From the NCBI GenBank assembly GCA_016840405.1, contig JAEOSK010000001.1:32001-96000 (forward strand): a stretch of DNA of 64,000 nt, given 5' to 3'. This DNA is from Candidatus Hermodarchaeum yapensis (GTDB lineage: Archaea; Asgardarchaeota; Hermodarchaeia; Hermodarchaeales; Hermodarchaeaceae). Numbering within the stretch: position 1 is the first letter of the stretch; each line of letters opens with the position of its first letter. Below, piece by piece: positions 20,410 through 27,592 of this stretch. The notes under the pieces were generated by a model. That model was not told where the DNA came from. It was given only the letters and a program-made list of their open reading frames with translations, and did no database searches. The translations under genes and the position numbers were made by a program.

Positions 20410-22050
20410 TCATACAGTGTTTAGAATTGGAGTAAAGCGAATTTTTAGTTGCTTCCGCTCTTTTTTCAATATGACAGTTTTCCGCCAATTGGTATCATCA
20501 CTTAATGGGTAATCAAGTCTAAAATGCGATCCTCGACTTTCTCTCCGTGCTAACACTGCTTCGAAAACCAGCTTGGCTAAAATCAGCATTGATCGCATTT
20601 CAAATGCTAGTACTAGTTGAGTGGGGGTTTGAGCTTGTATTTGTGGCAGTATAGTTCCTTTGATTTGGTCTAATCGTTCGAGACCCAGCTGAAGCCCTTG
20701 TTGATTCCGAACAGGTCGACAGAACTTGGAGAGCGTGGCCTGAACCACGGATTTCAAATACGTTGGGGATTGTACTTGACGCTTGGTTTTTTGTAATCCA
20801 TAAATGAAGTCTTTCACATTTTGTGTGCTGGTTTGATCGATTTTGATGAAGGTGTGCTGTTGGGCATAGTGACTTGCTTGTTGCCCTGCCTGTTTACCGA
20901 AGACTATAATCTCGGTGAGTGCGTTTCCACCTAATCGGTTCGCTCCATGAACACCGCCAGTGACTTCGCCTGCAGCAAATAAGCCGTTGATGGAGGTGGC
21001 ACAAGCTGTATCGATTCGTAGCCCACCCATTGTATAATGGGCGGTTGAGGCAATGCGAAGTCGTTTTCTTGTTAGAATATCTATCAATGGATGAAGTGTG
21101 TTCTTCTGGATTTCGTGTTCGTAGATGTCTTCAAAATCGGCTTGTGAGAGGGTTGTTAGGTCAAGAAGAGCGTAATCCACGTTGGACTCTTCTTTGATGA
21201 GTTCCTGTTCCATGGCGACAATTAGATTGTCACGCAGAATGGGGGTCGTCAGTAAACCGTATATGGCTAGAATAGGTTTCCCTTGAGAATTGAGTACTGG
21301 CCCCTCAGAAACGAGATGTTTTGTGGCTTCAATTAGCCAATCCAAGATGAATATGCGAGGGATGCCTGGATCAATAAACATTGGAAGAAACTGTATAAAT
21401 TCTAAATCTTGGACTTCTGCTCCACTCTCATAGGCTAACACAAGGCCATCCCCGGTGATTCGGGGTGGATTATCATTTCGGGAAAACAGGTGTGAATAGC
21501 CTCCTGTGGCCAAAATGGTTGCTTTAGCTGAGATAATAAGAAGTTCTCCTGTTACCATATCAAGGGCAATAATTCCAAGGCACCGGTTGTCTTGAACAAT
21601 TAATTCAAGTGCCATGGTACGCTCAAGAAGCTTTACTCCGGCATCCACCGCAAAGTTGGCCAAGGCTTGTGTTAGGTAAATGCCTGCAGGTGGCTTTTTG
21701 GCAACTGTTGTTCTACTTTGTCCGAATAATAGGGGCACTTTGAAGGATTGCAGTTCTTGAAGCGCGGAATGCGATTCTGAAACCAATAGATGAACCAGTT
21801 GGGAGTTGTTAAGAAATTGCCCTGATTCCAATGTAGCTTGGAAATGTTGGCGTTTTGTATCAGCATCATGTGCTGTACGGAAGGTTCCCACTGCCATGGC
21901 AGTACAGTTTGCTCGACCAACCAAGCTTTTAGTAATAAGCAGAATCGTGGCATTTTGTCTACGTGCTTCAATTGCGGCGCGTAATCCTGCTCCACCAGAA
22001 CCAATAATCAAGACATCCGCGGAATACTCCTTCACACTACCCTCTTCCAA
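20410..22050 (-). CDS. FAD-dependent oxidoreductase, SdhA/FrdA/NadB flavoprotein family
   Basis: IIGSGGAGLRAA, LATGG, HYTMGG, GVHGANRLGGNAL, RRESRGSHFRLDYP. Confidence 0.9.
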   Translation of the reverse strand: MEEGSVKEYSADVLIIGSGGAGLRAAIEARRQNATILLITKSLVGRANCTAMAVGTFRTAHDADTKRQHFQATLESGQFLNNSQLVHLLVSESHSALQELQSFKVPLLFGQSRTTVAKKPPAGIYLTQALANFAVDAGVKLLERTMALELIVQDNRCLGIIALDMVTGELLIISAKATILATGGYSHLFSRNDNPPRITGDGLVLAYESGAEVQDLEFIQFLPMFIDPGIPRIFILDWLIEATKHLVSEGPVLNSQGKPILAIYGLLTTPILRDNLIVAMEQELIKEESNVDYALLDLTTLSQADFEDIYEHEIQKNTLHPLIDILTRKRLRIASTAHYTMGGLRIDTACATSINGLFAAGEVTGGVHGANRLGGNALTEIIVFGKQAGQQASHYAQQHTFIKIDQTSTQNVKDFIYGLQKTKRQVQSPTYLKSVVQATLSKFCRPVRNQQGLQLGLERLDQIKGTILPQIQAQTPTQLVLAFEMRSMLILAKLVFEAVLARRESRGSHFRLDYPLSDDTNWRKTVILKKERKQLKIRFTPILNTV

Positions 22051-22146: not shown

Positions 22147-22767
22147 TCACTTTTTTAATTTAACTTGATTTTTTAACGTTTCAAGGTCAGTGGCAGATGT
22201 ATAAATAATTGGTTTAAAACCAAGATGTTGCCAGAAGGCTTCAGCTTCTTTGTTCCCGAGAACATACCGTAGGCTGATATGACTAACATTTTCTACTTCA
22301 AAGTACTTGCAGAGTTTGTGTATCAGCTGAGTGCCTATTCCATGTCGTCTATAGTTTTCCAATACAAAGATCATGCCGATTATCCCCGCTTCATTAGGTT
22401 CGTATTCAATTCGTTTAAGGATCTGTCCATAGGCAAAGCCCACGATGTTATTATCCTGTTCGGCAACCAGAACAAGACTCGTGTCGTTGGTGAGCAAGTG
22501 GCTGACATCGTGGACCAATTTCTGCCGCCCAGCCTTGGTGATTCGCCATATAAGTGGATTAGACTGCTCTACGTGCTGTTGTAATTTTATTCGTAAATTC
22601 AAAATTTTCTCCTGATCAGCAGTTGTCGCTCTTCGAACAAGCATTCCAAATTCTCTCCTTATTTGTCCAAACCCTTGTTGTATACATCGGTTGGTGTGGA
22701 CTCTCATTTCTGTTTCTTTGGGGTGGGATTCTGCCTTTCGCACCTTCAACGTGAATCTTCTTTTCAT
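22147..22767 (-). CDS. GNAT acetyltransferase
   Basis: FVLENYRRHGIGTQL, N..A..FW..LGF; alternative start at ATG 22644. Confidence 0.88.
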   Translation of the reverse strand: MKRRFTLKVRKAESHPKETEMRVHTNRCIQQGFGQIRREFGMLVRRATTADQEKILNLRIKLQQHVEQSNPLIWRITKAGRQKLVHDVSHLLTNDTSLVLVAEQDNNIVGFAYGQILKRIEYEPNEAGIIGMIFVLENYRRHGIGTQLIHKLCKYFEVENVSHISLRYVLGNKEAEAFWQHLGFKPIIYTSATDLETLKNQVKLKK

Positions 22768-24248
22768 ACATCTTCTATCCCCTCAATTCGCGCTAGAGTC
22801 CATCTTCCCTTATCTGTCAGATCATAATATTGTCTTTTGGATTTTCGATAGGTTTGAACGGAGCGTGTTCGTGTGATAAGACCAGTGCGTATCAGCTCGT
22901 TAAGGTGTTGATACACACTTGATACTGAAACCTTGACGCCTGTTTCTGCAATTAGTGTCTTCCAAATAGCATAGCCATATGATTCATTTCTTTGGAGAAT
23001 CTTAAGGATGTGGAGTTTAGTTCCGCCCAATTTTGTTGTATACTTTCGTTTCTCAACGCGACCAAGAAGATGTTCTATATTGGTATGGCCTTTTGCAATG
23101 GTTTGAGCAATTTCTGGGTATTTTAATCCCATCCCAGTAATTACACAGATGATTTTATCTCCTGTGTCAATTGAACCTTCTCGAAGTATTTGATGTAAAG
23201 CTGCAATAGTTGCAGCTGATGCGGGTTCAGCAAAAACACCTTCTAAACTAGCTAATGAACTGACGGCATCCAAAATTGCACTATCTGAAACTGAAACAGT
23301 AAAGCCCTCCGATTCACGAATTGCATCTAAAGCAAGTTTTCCACAAGACGGGTTTTTCATTCCAATATCTATAGCTATCGTCGATGCCTTGGTTGATGGT
23401 TCAACGGATTTACTGCCCTTTTGAAAGGCAGTAACAATGGGGGCACATCCTTTTGCTTGTACGCCGATGAGTTTTGGTGGTTCCTTTTCCATCCATCCGA
23501 GCAATTGTAATTCTTTGATTGCTTTCCAAATCATTGAAAGATGACCACCATTTCCCATGGGCACAAGAATCCAGTCTGGGGGAATCCAATCGAGTTGTTC
23601 ACAAATCTCATAGCCTGTGGTTTTCACACCCTCAAGAAAGTAAGGGCTATGACCAATTATTGTGTGTGCATTCGGGGCTCTTTCTATCGTTCGTGCTTCT
23701 CCCTCCTCGCGGTCTTTCACTATTTCTAATTCTGGTTGATAAGCGATTATTTGGTAGAGTTTGCCAATGTCGACTCTTTGTGGCACAAACACATGACTTT
23801 TCATTCCTGCTCTAGCAGCATAAGCAACTACCGAGGCTGCAAGGTTGCCTGATGAGCCACATGAAACGGCTTTGAAACCAAGTTCTTTTGCTTTTGATAT
23901 TTCAACACTTGTTCCGCGATCAATGAAAGCCCCTGTAGGATTGGTGGTTTCATCCTTTAGGTAGAGCTGTCGTAAACCCAGTTTTTGGGCGAGGCGGTCG
24001 CATTCATGCAGAAATGTTCCTCCCTCTCCTAGAGAAACAATGTTCCGCCGATCCTGTACTGGAAGCAGTTCAAAATACTTCCAAACACCTGGTTCTCTGT
24101 CAGCTAATGATGAAACATCAATCTGATTATGGATTGCTTCAAGATCATAAACAACCTCGAACAAACCACCACATTGAGGGCACCCATGTATTGGAGGCGA
24201 CGGGCGTTCCGTTTCGTAGGCGCATTCTGAACATCGGAGCTTTGACAT
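22764..24248 (-). CDS. Threonine-synthase-like domain lacking the PLP lysine, fused to a C-terminal PadR-type winged helix
   Basis: SLGEGGT, NPTGAFIDRG (canonical NPTGSFKDRG), SSGN, VPMGNGG, EPASAA, ITGMGLK; then ILKILQRNESYGYAIWK...VYQHLNEL...RQYYDLTDKG. Confidence 0.9.
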   Translation of the reverse strand: MSKLRCSECAYETERPSPPIHGCPQCGGLFEVVYDLEAIHNQIDVSSLADREPGVWKYFELLPVQDRRNIVSLGEGGTFLHECDRLAQKLGLRQLYLKDETTNPTGAFIDRGTSVEISKAKELGFKAVSCGSSGNLAASVVAYAARAGMKSHVFVPQRVDIGKLYQIIAYQPELEIVKDREEGEARTIERAPNAHTIIGHSPYFLEGVKTTGYEICEQLDWIPPDWILVPMGNGGHLSMIWKAIKELQLLGWMEKEPPKLIGVQAKGCAPIVTAFQKGSKSVEPSTKASTIAIDIGMKNPSCGKLALDAIRESEGFTVSVSDSAILDAVSSLASLEGVFAEPASAATIAALHQILREGSIDTGDKIICVITGMGLKYPEIAQTIAKGHTNIEHLLGRVEKRKYTTKLGGTKLHILKILQRNESYGYAIWKTLIAETGVKVSVSSVYQHLNELIRTGLITRTRSVQTYRKSKRQYYDLTDKGRWTLARIEGIEDV

Positions 24249-24275: not shown

Positions 24276-24297
24276 TATATAAGTAATTACTTATATA
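24276..24297. promoter_or_regulatory. Perfect 22-bp palindrome TATATAAGTAATTACTTATATA in the divergent promoter (candidate operator)
   Basis: Checked base by base; lies between the divergent starts at 24248 and 24337. Confidence 0.75.
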
Positions 24298-24336: not shown

Positions 24337-24969
24337 TTGACTGCGATACATCTCAATTCATTATTCAATAAAAAAATCAAACTTCAACAAACCAGGGTTT
24401 TTTCTTCGACTTCGATTTTTGGTGTTAACAATCCTGTTTTTTCTCGTCCATCCGTGTTTTTAGCACTCACTGCAATTTTCACAGCTCTGACGACGGTTAC
24501 GACGCTTCTGATAGTTATCCCTTTCCCTGCAACCTCTGGGTACTTCAATCTAGGTGATTCAATGGTAATGATTAGTGGACTACTTTTGGGTCCACTGGGA
24601 GGGTTCATTGCAGGTGGAATGGGGTCCGCTCTTGCTGATATGGTTGGATATCCTCATTTTGCTCCAATTACGTTCCTTGTCAAAGGATGTGAAGGATTGG
24701 TTGTGGGCCTCGTTACCCAGCAAAATCAAACTTCGTCTCGAATTTATTTCAGGGATATTCTCGGGTTACTTTTGGGTGCCTTCATCATGTTACTTGGGTA
24801 TTTCATTGCAGAAGCTCTCCTTTTTGGTTTGGAGGCTGCCCTTCTGGAATTAGTCTGGGTCAACTCGATACAAATTACATTTGGAATTATTGTCGCCCTT
24901 CTTATTGGGTCTGTCACACGGAGATATGTGGCTTCAAATCTGATTTCTCAACTGGATAGGGTAAAATAA
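24337..24969 (+). CDS. ECF transporter S component
   Basis: IPFPATSGYFNLGDSM...LLGP.GG.IAGG.GSALAD...APITFLVKG.EG. Confidence 0.9.
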   Translation: MTAIHLNSLFNKKIKLQQTRVFSSTSIFGVNNPVFSRPSVFLALTAIFTALTTVTTLLIVIPFPATSGYFNLGDSMVMISGLLLGPLGGFIAGGMGSALADMVGYPHFAPITFLVKGCEGLVVGLVTQQNQTSSRIYFRDILGLLLGAFIMLLGYFIAEALLFGLEAALLELVWVNSIQITFGIIVALLIGSVTRRYVASNLISQLDRVK

Positions 24970-25988
24970 TGCAGATCACCAGCGTAGATTTTCTAATCAC
25001 TTTTCGATGCAATGCAAGTTGTAAGCATTGTGGTTACAGAGCAGGACCTTCCAATCACGGTTATATGAAAGTCGATGACGCAAAAAAGTGGTTATCTACA
25101 CTAGCTTCAGCTCACCCACTTCAATCAATTACTATTCACGGAGGAGAACCGCTCCTCTTTTTTCCAAATTATTGTTTAGAGAGGATACTTCGATATGCCA
25201 CAGAGTTGAACATTCCTAAACGAGGGATTATTACTAATGGATTTTGGGCAACAGACAAGGAAACTGCCCGGCGAAAGCTTACGAAACTTAAATCCTGTGG
25301 GCTTACGAATATCACATTTAGTGTAGATGGATTTCATCAAGAACACATTCCAATCGAAACTGTTCGAATTTGTATAGAAGAAGCAGTTGCCTTGGGCTTT
25401 ACAAAAGTTGGAATACTAAGCCATTATCTTATTTCCCCCAAGGCGGAGAATATCTATAACAAATTAACAAATCAGGCATTAGCCAAAATTGAAGATATTG
25501 ATGGAATTCAAATTGCACGGTATAAAACTAGCCTATACGGACGAGCTGCAGAGACATTAGCTGAATTTATGGAAAAAGATTCAAAACTGCCTTCAGGGCC
25601 TTGTCGGCTTTCTTATTGGCTTGGTAGTGAAATTCAAAATCCTAAAGCCATCGAAATTGACTTTGATGGGCATGTTACGTTATGTCCGGGTATTTGCATT
25701 GGGAATCTAAAAACTCAACCACTAACCGACGTATTAAGAGACTATGTTCCTCACAAGCATCCGATTCTGAGTATTCTCGCTCGTGATGGACCTATGGGGT
25801 TAGCCAAAGTAGTTGATGATTTAAAAATTTACTATGATCACCGGTTTGTCGATGAATGCCATTTGTGCTATGAAATGCGGCGGCTTCTCCAAAGACACTT
25901 TCCACTACGCCTTGCCCCCTCCTCTTGCTATTTACCCGCAACTTCGAGACAGACTATGCCAATTCCATTTCTTTCAAGATGTTTATGA
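24969..25988 (+). CDS. Radical SAM protein
   Basis: CNASCKHC, HGGEP, TNGFWA, SVDGFHQE, C-terminal DECHLC. Confidence 0.92.
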   Translation: MQITSVDFLITFRCNASCKHCGYRAGPSNHGYMKVDDAKKWLSTLASAHPLQSITIHGGEPLLFFPNYCLERILRYATELNIPKRGIITNGFWATDKETARRKLTKLKSCGLTNITFSVDGFHQEHIPIETVRICIEEAVALGFTKVGILSHYLISPKAENIYNKLTNQALAKIEDIDGIQIARYKTSLYGRAAETLAEFMEKDSKLPSGPCRLSYWLGSEIQNPKAIEIDFDGHVTLCPGICIGNLKTQPLTDVLRDYVPHKHPILSILARDGPMGLAKVVDDLKIYYDHRFVDECHLCYEMRRLLQRHFPLRLAPSSCYLPATSRQTMPIPFLSRCL

Positions 25989-26000
25989 CCAGAGTGGTGT

Positions 26001-26540
26001 ATGTCAGTGAAAGAAAGTCCACAGAGTAAACAGATGACTGCAATAAGAATTCGGAGTGCAAATGAAAACGATATACCTGGGATTCATATGGTAATCAGTA
26101 AAGGGTTTTGGGGTCTTCAAAGGCGAGGATATTCAAAGAAAGCAATTGAAGCAGCAATTCCCTCTCGAAGTGAAATTCAACAACGTTTACTTTTGCCTAA
26201 AACGGTTGTATTTGTAGCTGCAAATGAAGACCAAATTATTGGAACAGTTACTGGAAGTGAGAAATTCGAACACTTTCATGTCCAGTCCTTTGCGGTTGAT
26301 CCTAGGTTTCAAGGGCACCGAGTTGGGTATAGTCTTATGACTGAACTTGAAAAAAGCGCTCGACAATTTAATTGTAAGAAATTATTTGTGCAAACCGCCT
26401 GGGCAATGTTTGAAGCCATTAAACTGTATCTGAAGTTAGATTTTGAACTGGAGGGATATCATCCAAGACATTTTTTTGGAGAAGTATTGCTGTCGTTTGG
26501 CAAAATTCTGAAACCATCAAAAAATGGTAATCGAGTGTGA
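26001..26540 (+). CDS. GNAT acetyltransferase
   Basis: AVDPRFQGHRVG, AIKLYLKLDF. Confidence 0.88.
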   Translation: MSVKESPQSKQMTAIRIRSANENDIPGIHMVISKGFWGLQRRGYSKKAIEAAIPSRSEIQQRLLLPKTVVFVAANEDQIIGTVTGSEKFEHFHVQSFAVDPRFQGHRVGYSLMTELEKSARQFNCKKLFVQTAWAMFEAIKLYLKLDFELEGYHPRHFFGEVLLSFGKILKPSKNGNRV

Positions 26541-26635: not shown

Positions 26636-27592
26636 TTGATCAACTCATCTATCAAATACTATCTAAGCCTAATAATTGCATCAATTTGCTTTGGGAGCAT
26701 TGCTGTTTTTGCGTTCTATCTGACCCTATTTGGTGTTTCTTCAACACAGCAGACATTCTTTCGAATACTCTTTACGGCATTTTACCTGTTTTGTGGTCTA
26801 GGTGTTTGGCTTCGCTTTCATGATATTTCCATTAGACCCGAGCACGTAACACTTTTTGTCCTCTATGGACTGATAGGGGTGTGTGCACCCCTTTTTACTT
26901 ACATAACTGCTATTGCAATAGGTACGCCAGTTATCGTTGCAGTTTCGCTAGCCTATCTTTATCCTGCTATTACACTTATCCTTGCCAGAATTTTTCTAAA
27001 TGAATTGTTCAATTTGAAACGAATCATCGCTGTAGTTTGTTCTATAACTGGGGCAATCGTTATTTCAACACCAATAATTTCTGAATATTTCCCGATACCT
27101 GTTTTTGGCTTCATTCTATCAGCATTAACTGCTTTGTTTTTAGCCTGTTTCATGGTGGTGGGACGAAAATTAGGTGGATATGAGGATTATAACCCACTTG
27201 TCACTACATTCTGGGGATATTTATTTGGGTCTTTATGGATGGGTGTTATTCTACTCGGTCTGCAGTTTCTAATCATTGATCCTCGTATTGTTGGGTTCCA
27301 ATTGATATTACCAATACCTGTTTGGGTTTTACTTCTCGGGTTTGCCTTAATTGCCACAGCAATTCCCTACACATTAACTAATTATGGAATGAAGCGAATT
27401 GATGCTTCCGTAACCTCAATCATTCTACTACTTGACCCACTAAGTAGTGTTATCTTTGGAATCCTCTTGATGGGTCAAGTAGTGGTATTTTGGCAACTCA
27501 GTGGTGCATCGTTAATTCTTATTGCTACCATACTAACTGGCCTTGAACAAAAATCATCTAAAAAGAACAGTATAAGGCAAAAGGGGAGCTAA
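26636..27592 (+). CDS. DMT/EamA family transporter
   Basis: About 10 TMs in two repeats; YLYPAITLILARIFLNE. Confidence 0.9.
   Translation: MINSSIKYYLSLIIASICFGSIAVFAFYLTLFGVSSTQQTFFRILFTAFYLFCGLGVWLRFHDISIRPEHVTLFVLYGLIGVCAPLFTYITAIAIGTPVIVAVSLAYLYPAITLILARIFLNELFNLKRIIAVVCSITGAIVISTPIISEYFPIPVFGFILSALTALFLACFMVVGRKLGGYEDYNPLVTTFWGYLFGSLWMGVILLGLQFLIIDPRIVGFQLILPIPVWVLLLGFALIATAIPYTLTNYGMKRIDASVTSIILLLDPLSSVIFGILLMGQVVVFWQLSGASLILIATILTGLEQKSSKKNSIRQKGS

Follow-up and report, generated by a model that had tools for sequence, protein, structure and literature searches.

We analysed a stretch of 64,000 nucleotides of Candidatus Hermodarchaeum yapensis (contig JAEOSK010000001.1, positions 32,001 to 96,000; hereafter the window), in which one open frame on the reverse strand (22764-24248) encodes a protein of 494 amino acids (P0001) that fuses a threonine synthase (ThrC) fold to a PadR-type DNA-binding domain. 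An 88-bp gap separates this gene from a divergent gene for the S component of an energy-coupling factor (ECF) transporter (24337-24969, forward strand), and within the gap lies a perfect 22-bp palindrome (24276-24297). An earlier reading of the letters (the original prediction) had proposed that the fusion is a threonine synthase pseudoenzyme which serves as a metabolite-sensing transcription factor.

A threonine synthase fold without its Schiff-base lysine

All parts of the fusion protein are encoded on the reverse strand. The N-terminus is a Cys4 zinc ribbon (residues 6-26, 24171-24233), whose cysteines C6, C9, C23 and C26 are each at least 90% conserved among 117 fusion proteins. It is followed by a fold-type II domain of the kind that binds pyridoxal 5'-phosphate (PLP) (PALP, residues 71-372, 23133-24038; Pfam E 1.7e-66), which is very probably catalytically dead, and by a PadR-type winged helix-turn-helix (wHTH; residues 414-486, 22791-23009; PF03551, E 3.5e-14, 53 bits against a cut-off of 27). 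PALP and PadR were the only domains that Pfam detected in the protein, with no GntR or fold-type I domain. In an AlphaFold2 model based on the 117 homologues the mean pLDDT was 92.3, and both the ThrC body and the wHTH were modelled confidently (pLDDT 91-98 for residues 411-480), with lower confidence for the linker between them (about residues 371-410). The top structural matches of the model in Foldseek were threonine synthases (TM 0.87 on the target for 2zsj), and the sequence matches the solved ThrC 2zsj with an E-value of 4e-65 and 41% identity. The protein carries a genuine PadR-type domain, and the zinc ribbon, the PLP-contact motifs and the subsequent wHTH that the original prediction had named were all confirmed, its description proving accurate throughout.

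The codon at 23924-23922 reads ATT and encodes Ile109 in the context NPTGAFIDRG, two substitutions away from AAA or AAG. In the alignment to 2zsj this residue falls exactly on the lysine of the SFKDRG motif, so that the original prediction was right in placing an isoleucine at the Schiff-base position. The 120 best homologues, which are 49-94% identical to the fusion and all possess PALP and PadR, stem from Hod-, Thor-, Loki-, Odin- and Sifarchaeota and from one Bathyarchaeia genome. Orthologues that all keep the lysine had been named as evidence against the prediction; instead, each of the 115 close homologues that could be scored has isoleucine (101) or leucine (14) and none has lysine. Ile109 is therefore neither a chance substitution nor a sequencing error, and the loss of the lysine is a family trait.

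An exhaustive search of 1.84 billion protein cluster representatives extended this picture. When the top 150 were classified by architecture and by the residue at the lysine position, as had been proposed for the fusions, the lysine proved to be always present in unfused ThrC (70 of 70) and almost always lost in PadR fusions (about 64 of 66), where it is replaced by I, L, V, M, T, R, N, A, F or S. In two cases among these representatives a PadR fusion still has it. The prediction has to be amended for distant fusion clades, which bear arginine or even lysine, the close homologues having isoleucine or leucine. Ten further lysine-bearing proteins of 610-630 amino acids in the top 150 (P0165, P0174, P0193, P0199, P0223, P0225, P0227, P0232, P0251 and P0259) belong to a separate fusion of ThrC with a LeuA allosteric (dimerisation) domain and may be allosterically regulated threonine synthases.

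This lysine is needed by fold-type II PLP enzymes to form the Schiff base and to transfer protons. We looked for a compensating lysine and found none gained among the positions that separate fusions from enzymes. Because the defining Schiff-base lysine is lacking, the fusion does not qualify as a functional threonine synthase, and we are confident that it is a pseudoenzyme. A separate intact thrC, which the prediction had suggested looking for, is present on another contig of the same genome; it encodes an unfused protein of 420 amino acids with the lysine and the same Cys4 ribbon.

The residues that touch the cofactor in ThrC have been kept. Although the fusions with conserved PLP contacts share merely 33-58% identity, the stretch N103-P-T-G-S-F is 94-100% conserved, G134 97%, N135 89%, G232 95%, G234 100% and T371 97%; E341-P342 and T371-G-x-G-L-K376 are also conserved in the 117 fusions. 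The positions that best discriminate between fused and unfused proteins are 109 (lysine lost), 160 and 294 (both to Asp/Glu), 302 and 165 (to Tyr), followed by 179, 239, 204 (Arg to Phe/Leu/Tyr) and 136, and the window protein has the family-specific residues D160, Y165, D294 and M239. Its Phe204 aligns with the arginine of the NPxR motif in 2zsj, which we take to be the arginine that holds the substrate phosphate; this position is F, L, Y or I in the fusions and R in 46% of the unfused proteins. Judged from these residues, the cofactor pocket with its phosphate loop, the asparagine at O3' and the threonine at N1 appears to be retained. With contacts conserved at 89-100% and changes at position 109 and on the substrate side, it is the catalytic residue and the substrate side that have been remodelled.

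The fusion was also modelled as a homodimer, which scored 0.84 against 0.00 for the best control. Among proteins solved as pairs of one chain, 20 of 30 attained this mark; among those solved as single chains, 1 of 23 did. At least 73% of the contacts were common to the runs, the partner pLDDT was at least 82, and the modelled interface lies in the ThrC domain and includes residues 162, 165-166 and 168-171. Since this interface is ThrC-like and ThrC dimers have been solved, the pass may reflect likeness only. An interface wholly within the ThrC domain would also suit a protein in which this domain binds no ligand and is a mere dimerisation scaffold of a constitutive PadR-type repressor or activator, and the loss of the lysine is compatible with a complete loss of cofactor binding. 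However, N135, G232-x-G234 and T371 play no part in dimerisation and are nevertheless among the conserved PLP contacts, which argues that the pocket is still in use. We therefore consider a scaffold without ligand unlikely.

A conserved inverted repeat at the promoters of the fusion and its partners

The palindrome at 24276-24297 is a candidate operator with the form TATATARG-N6-CYTATATA, and the same repeat recurs upstream of fusion genes in other classes. A scan of 685 kb of fusion loci yielded 43 sites in 32 of 47 loci compared to 2 in a reversed-sequence control. The sites lie no more than about 110 nt upstream of the fusion gene, of the ECF-S gene, of pdxS (locus L073) or of a GNAT acetyltransferase gene of neighbour cluster 17 (L062). 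In the convergent loci L094-L100 the repeat precedes the ECF-S gene and not the fusion gene, in L077 it precedes a fusion-pdxS-pdxT operon without a divergent partner, and an Aigarchaeota locus keeps the consensus exactly. These placements and the exact conservation argue that the repeat is more than a promoter element.

Within the genome itself (2.7 Mb), strict as well as relaxed scans returned a single site, namely 24276-24297. Therefore, the fusion looks like a local regulator here, and a wider regulon cannot be claimed. The midpoint of the arm on the side of the fusion gene lies about 31 nt ahead of the fusion's ATG and that of the other arm about 43 nt ahead of the ECF-S start, which is preceded by GAGGTG. 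Archaeal TATA boxes lie about 26-27 nt before the transcript start. At these distances and with this spacing, the two arms occupy the places in which one would look for the TATA boxes of the two divergent genes, one arm for each gene.

This position raises the question whether the palindrome consists only of back-to-back TATA boxes, with the fusion protein acting at other sites. The arms resemble TATA, and from each of them it is roughly 27-31 nt to the point where transcription of one of the genes should begin, as such an explanation would have it. On the other hand, from Asgard to Aigarchaeota the repeat has the same fixed spacer of 6 nt and the same conserved RG/CY flanks, and the 2.7 Mb contain just two instances of a loose twin-TATA pattern. 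Moreover, paired promoters do not account for the repeat in L077, where there is no divergent gene, or for its move to the ECF-S promoter in the convergent loci. We consider it improbable that the palindrome has only a promoter function, and likely that the fusion protein binds DNA at the repeat.

Two observations concern the distribution of the repeat. The cluster-17 GNAT gene in L062 has a second copy (L062:14498-14519) of its own 54 nt upstream, far from the fusion gene, and this acetyltransferase looks like a genuine regulon member. In addition, overlapping copies with an offset of 16-18 nt that share the central palindromic element are found at L073:6927-6966, L076:6927-6966, L094:5095-5134 and L099:6300-6337, an arrangement which hints that two dimers might bind at some promoters.

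Neighbouring genes and a probable link to vitamin B6

The divergent ECF-type S component (24337-24969; PF07155, E 1.2e-36) is a candidate transporter for B6 vitamers of the PdxU2/HmpT type. It is followed on the forward strand by a radical SAM protein of the same operon (24969-25988, overlapping the ECF-S gene by 1 nt), by a RimI-like GNAT acetyltransferase of cluster 17, which is a recurrent regulon member as judged by its domain and by neighbour clustering (26001-26540), and by an EamA/DMT transporter as the final gene of the divergent cluster (26636-27592; domain match). On the reverse strand a second GNAT acetyltransferase (22147-22767; cluster 239, specific to this genome) is probably co-transcribed with the fusion gene since its start overlaps the fusion stop by 4 nt.

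For comparison, open reading frames were called and neighbours clustered in 46 loci (40 from a sample of 151 genomes of the phylum, 5 public contigs and the window). The S component of PF07155 is the dominant neighbour and adjoins the fusion in 32 of the 46 loci, in divergent orientation in the window and in Hod, Thor and Loki, in tandem downstream in family f2 and convergently in family f9. In four loci EcfA-EcfA'-EcfT are encoded alongside. Two loci without an ECF-S neighbour, which belong to two further lineages, have pdxS-pdxT beside the fusion instead, divergently in L073 and downstream in the same direction in L077. A member from the Nitrososphaeria/Aigarchaeota, which has a threonine at the lysine position, again possesses a divergent PF07155 gene. 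The Odin locus has no B6 neighbour, and none was found near the PRK05638-type fusion of Thermococcus.

The only match of the window S component in the PDB at E<=1 was 4HZU_S (E 4.5e-18). This chain is HmpT/PdxU2 of L. brevis, from which pyridoxamine was extracted (PMC4860826), and both PdxU and PdxU2 belong to PF07155 (PMC9997740). Three of the residues that form the HmpT pocket (E41, H84, Q87, Y120, N140 and Q143; PMC4860826) are identical in the window protein, namely Y120, N140 and Q143. Fusion and orthologous S component also co-occur: G000 and G011 are the sole members of the genus with either, and in both the two genes are divergent, with S components that are 72% identical. A paralogue of the S component with 55% identity (G000:C65:5228-5683) is encoded elsewhere in this genome, and several congeners without the fusion possess it as well.

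Supply of the vitamin points in the same direction. No pdxS or pdxT scored above the cut-off in the genome, which is 86% complete so that their absence is unproven, and none was found in 14 congeners. This fits a dependence on B6 uptake, and EcfT homologues are encoded in the genome. As pdxS is present in just 25 of the 151 sampled Asgard genomes, such a dependence is suggested to be widespread in the phylum, and synthesis of B6 de novo seems rare in this sample.

The ThrC origin of the sensing domain would rather lead one to expect that the fusion senses a metabolite of the threonine pathway (O-phosphohomoserine, homoserine or threonine), with EamA and GNAT as its means of controlling the export of amino acids and acetylation. 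EamA/DMT exporters together with GNATs do occur in the window operon and in the Thor locus L017, where both accompany the fusion, and the threonine/homoserine exporter RhtA of E. coli is an EamA-family protein. However, EamA is found beside the fusion in these two loci only, and no thr or hom genes recur as neighbours across the 47 loci, in which the recurrent partners are the PdxU2-like S component and pdxST. Besides, the fusions have F, L or Y at the position of the NPxR arginine and further changes on the substrate side. We thus regard a threonine-pathway ligand as improbable. The original prediction had left open whether threonine, phosphohomoserine or a B6 vitamer is sensed; its reading of the enzyme fold as a sensor is supported, while the neighbouring genes (for a PdxU2/HmpT-like transporter, or pdxST) and the shared candidate operator narrow the choice of ligand to vitamin B6. 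That a B6 vitamer is the ligand seems to us reasonably likely.

A putative one-component regulator of vitamin B6 homeostasis

Taken as a whole, the fusion is probably a one-component, B6-responsive transcription factor built from a dead threonine synthase, which regulates its own gene and the divergent operon. In the mechanism that we propose, the ThrC interface would hold the dimer together and present two wHTH domains to the inverted repeat at 24276-24297. A phosphorylated B6 vitamer, with PLP as the likeliest candidate, would be bound non-covalently and hence reversibly in the pocket without the lysine, and the dimer on the DNA would cover both TATA boxes. When B6 is sufficient, the fusion gene with the downstream GNAT (22147-22767) would be shut off, as would the operon of ECF-S, radical SAM, GNAT and EamA genes. 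Whether the ligand acts as a corepressor, as end-product logic would have it, is in our view about an even matter.

Several observations weigh against a B6-responsive repressor of this kind. PadR regulators usually leave the DNA on ligand binding, which is the opposite of corepressor logic. No repeat was found in 15 of the 47 loci, mostly of the Arg clade, and within this clade (f7, f14 and f18) no motif was seen in common between the sequences upstream of the fusion and those upstream of unlinked pdxS genes. Since the arms of the repeat are TATA-like, its conservation could partly be due to promoter function. With regard to the transporter, PF07155 also includes S components for riboflavin and other substrates, and the HmpT pocket residues E41, H84 and Q87 differ in the window protein (E41D, H84K, Q87E). 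The fusion is absent from 12 of 14 congeners. Finally, no clear pyridoxal kinase of the PdxK type was found in the 86%-complete genome, so that salvage is incomplete as reconstructed.

In an unrooted FastTree phylogeny, the unfused enzymes group together with a support of 96. The fusions form an aliphatic clade that contains the window protein (support 97) and an Arg/Lys clade that includes the PRK05638 type of Thermococcales (support 98). A single origin of the fusion is still conceivable. The clade that keeps the lysine corresponds to family f9 (loci L093-L100; genomes G146, G099 and G049), and in three of the five genomes of this clade that were checked, each 99-100% complete, the fusion is the sole match at ThrC level. 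In its loci the inverted repeat precedes the convergent PdxU-like gene, and these fusions may be bifunctional enzyme-regulators. A more far-reaching evolutionary scenario, which we offer only tentatively and think doubtful, would start from such ancestral fusions as working threonine synthases that report B6 to the fused wHTH through PLP occupancy (apo versus holo). Following a duplication, the copy that acts as sensor would have lost the lysine at least twice, once to arginine and once to aliphatic residues, thereby making cofactor binding reversible. With a pair of TATA boxes as operator, one dimer could silence two archaeal promoters at once, and in Asgard, Bathyarchaeia, Aigarchaeota and possibly Thermococcales B6 might be regulated mainly by this family.

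The nearest functional counterpart is bacterial PdxR of the MocR subfamily. There, too, a domain resembling a PLP enzyme is fused to a wHTH, and the PdxR gene is autoregulated and divergent from B6 genes (PMC5320631). PdxR regulons comprise pdxST, pdxU and often acetyltransferases of the RimI/RimL kind, and Archaea are reported to lack MocR regulators (PMC5320631); the fusion is likewise linked to pdxST, a PdxU2-like ECF-S component and a RimI-like GNAT. However, MocR proteins combine an N-terminal GntR wHTH with a fold-type I aminotransferase domain that has its lysine and form head-to-tail dimers, whereas the fusion has a C-terminal PadR wHTH, a fold-type II ThrC domain without the lysine and a candidate operator over TATA boxes. 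The likeness is an analogy and not homology, as neither domain of the fusion is homologous to the corresponding MocR domain.

Compared to ThrC proteins (2zsj, 1uim and 6cgq), the fusion has the same fold, the PLP-pocket motifs and a predicted ThrC-like dimer, together with the Cys4 ribbon of archaeal ThrC, but differs by isoleucine in place of the lysine, by phenylalanine in place of the NPxR arginine and by the added PadR domain. With PadR and LmrR it has in common the PF03551 wHTH, an inverted repeat as candidate operator and a putative local autoregulation. Classical PadR proteins are 110-200 amino acids long, dimerise via C-terminal helices and bind their ligand at the dimer interface. In the fusion, by contrast, an enzyme-derived domain of about 400 amino acids would supply dimerisation and the presumed ligand pocket. 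PadR operators have half-sites of the ATGT/ACAT type, from which the half-site TATATARG differs.

The architecture is already represented in NCBIfam, a point on which the original prediction needs correcting, although under an enzyme name. PRK05638 (NF004170, Thermococcales type), a model of 442 positions named threonine synthase, describes ThrC with a C-terminal wHTH and aligns with the fusion end to end (residues 4-486), with a score of 303 bits that is under its cut-off of 421 bits. P0242 (L028:6001-7326, CP015193.1), which is of the Thermococcus type, is a true member with 799 bits. It differs from the window protein in its arginine at the lysine position, its place in the separate Arg/Lys clade and a locus without B6 context. 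Since even this true member has arginine at the Schiff-base position, PRK05638 probably names a non-enzyme as an enzyme. The fusion also scores above the cut-offs of the ThrC models TIGR00260 (201 bits against 167) and PRK08197 (338 bits against 303). That it is nevertheless still an enzyme, be it a threonine synthase or a new PLP activity without an internal aldimine that has gained a DNA-binding tail, as the score above the PRK08197 cut-off and the name threonine synthase in all annotation pipelines would have it, is very hard to reconcile with mostly aliphatic replacements of a lysine that such enzymes need and with the intact ThrC in the same genome.

Most likely, the fusions are a new family of transcription factors that respond to B6, derive from an enzyme and are at present annotated as one. 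Full-text searches, which leave most subscription journals outside their coverage, returned neither a description of ThrC-PadR fusions nor one of a B6 regulator in Archaea. If our reading is true, the family provides the first candidate for a regulator of vitamin B6 homeostasis in Archaea and a second instance, independent of the first, in which a fold of PLP enzymes has been joined to a wHTH for B6 regulation. It would also single out the product of the neighbouring PF07155 gene as a B6 transporter of Archaea, and the fusions could serve as a natural scaffold for B6 biosensors. Because they are named threonine synthase wherever a source gives them a name, also by a curated NCBIfam equivalog, reconstructions of the metabolism of archaea, Asgard among them, can assign the synthesis of threonine to an enzyme that is dead.

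Two further genes recur near the fusion. In 12 loci of the Thor/Loki type the gene after the PdxU-like one, on the same strand, encodes a protein of 430 amino acids (cluster 3, e.g. L019:5893-7185); it has no relative in Pfam, NCBIfam or the PDB and may be a further regulon member. A TfrA/NadB-like FAD flavoprotein is encoded just downstream of the fusion in the window (20410-22050, reverse strand) and in the Thor locus (L017:9578-11191), where it is accompanied by an Fe-S protein.

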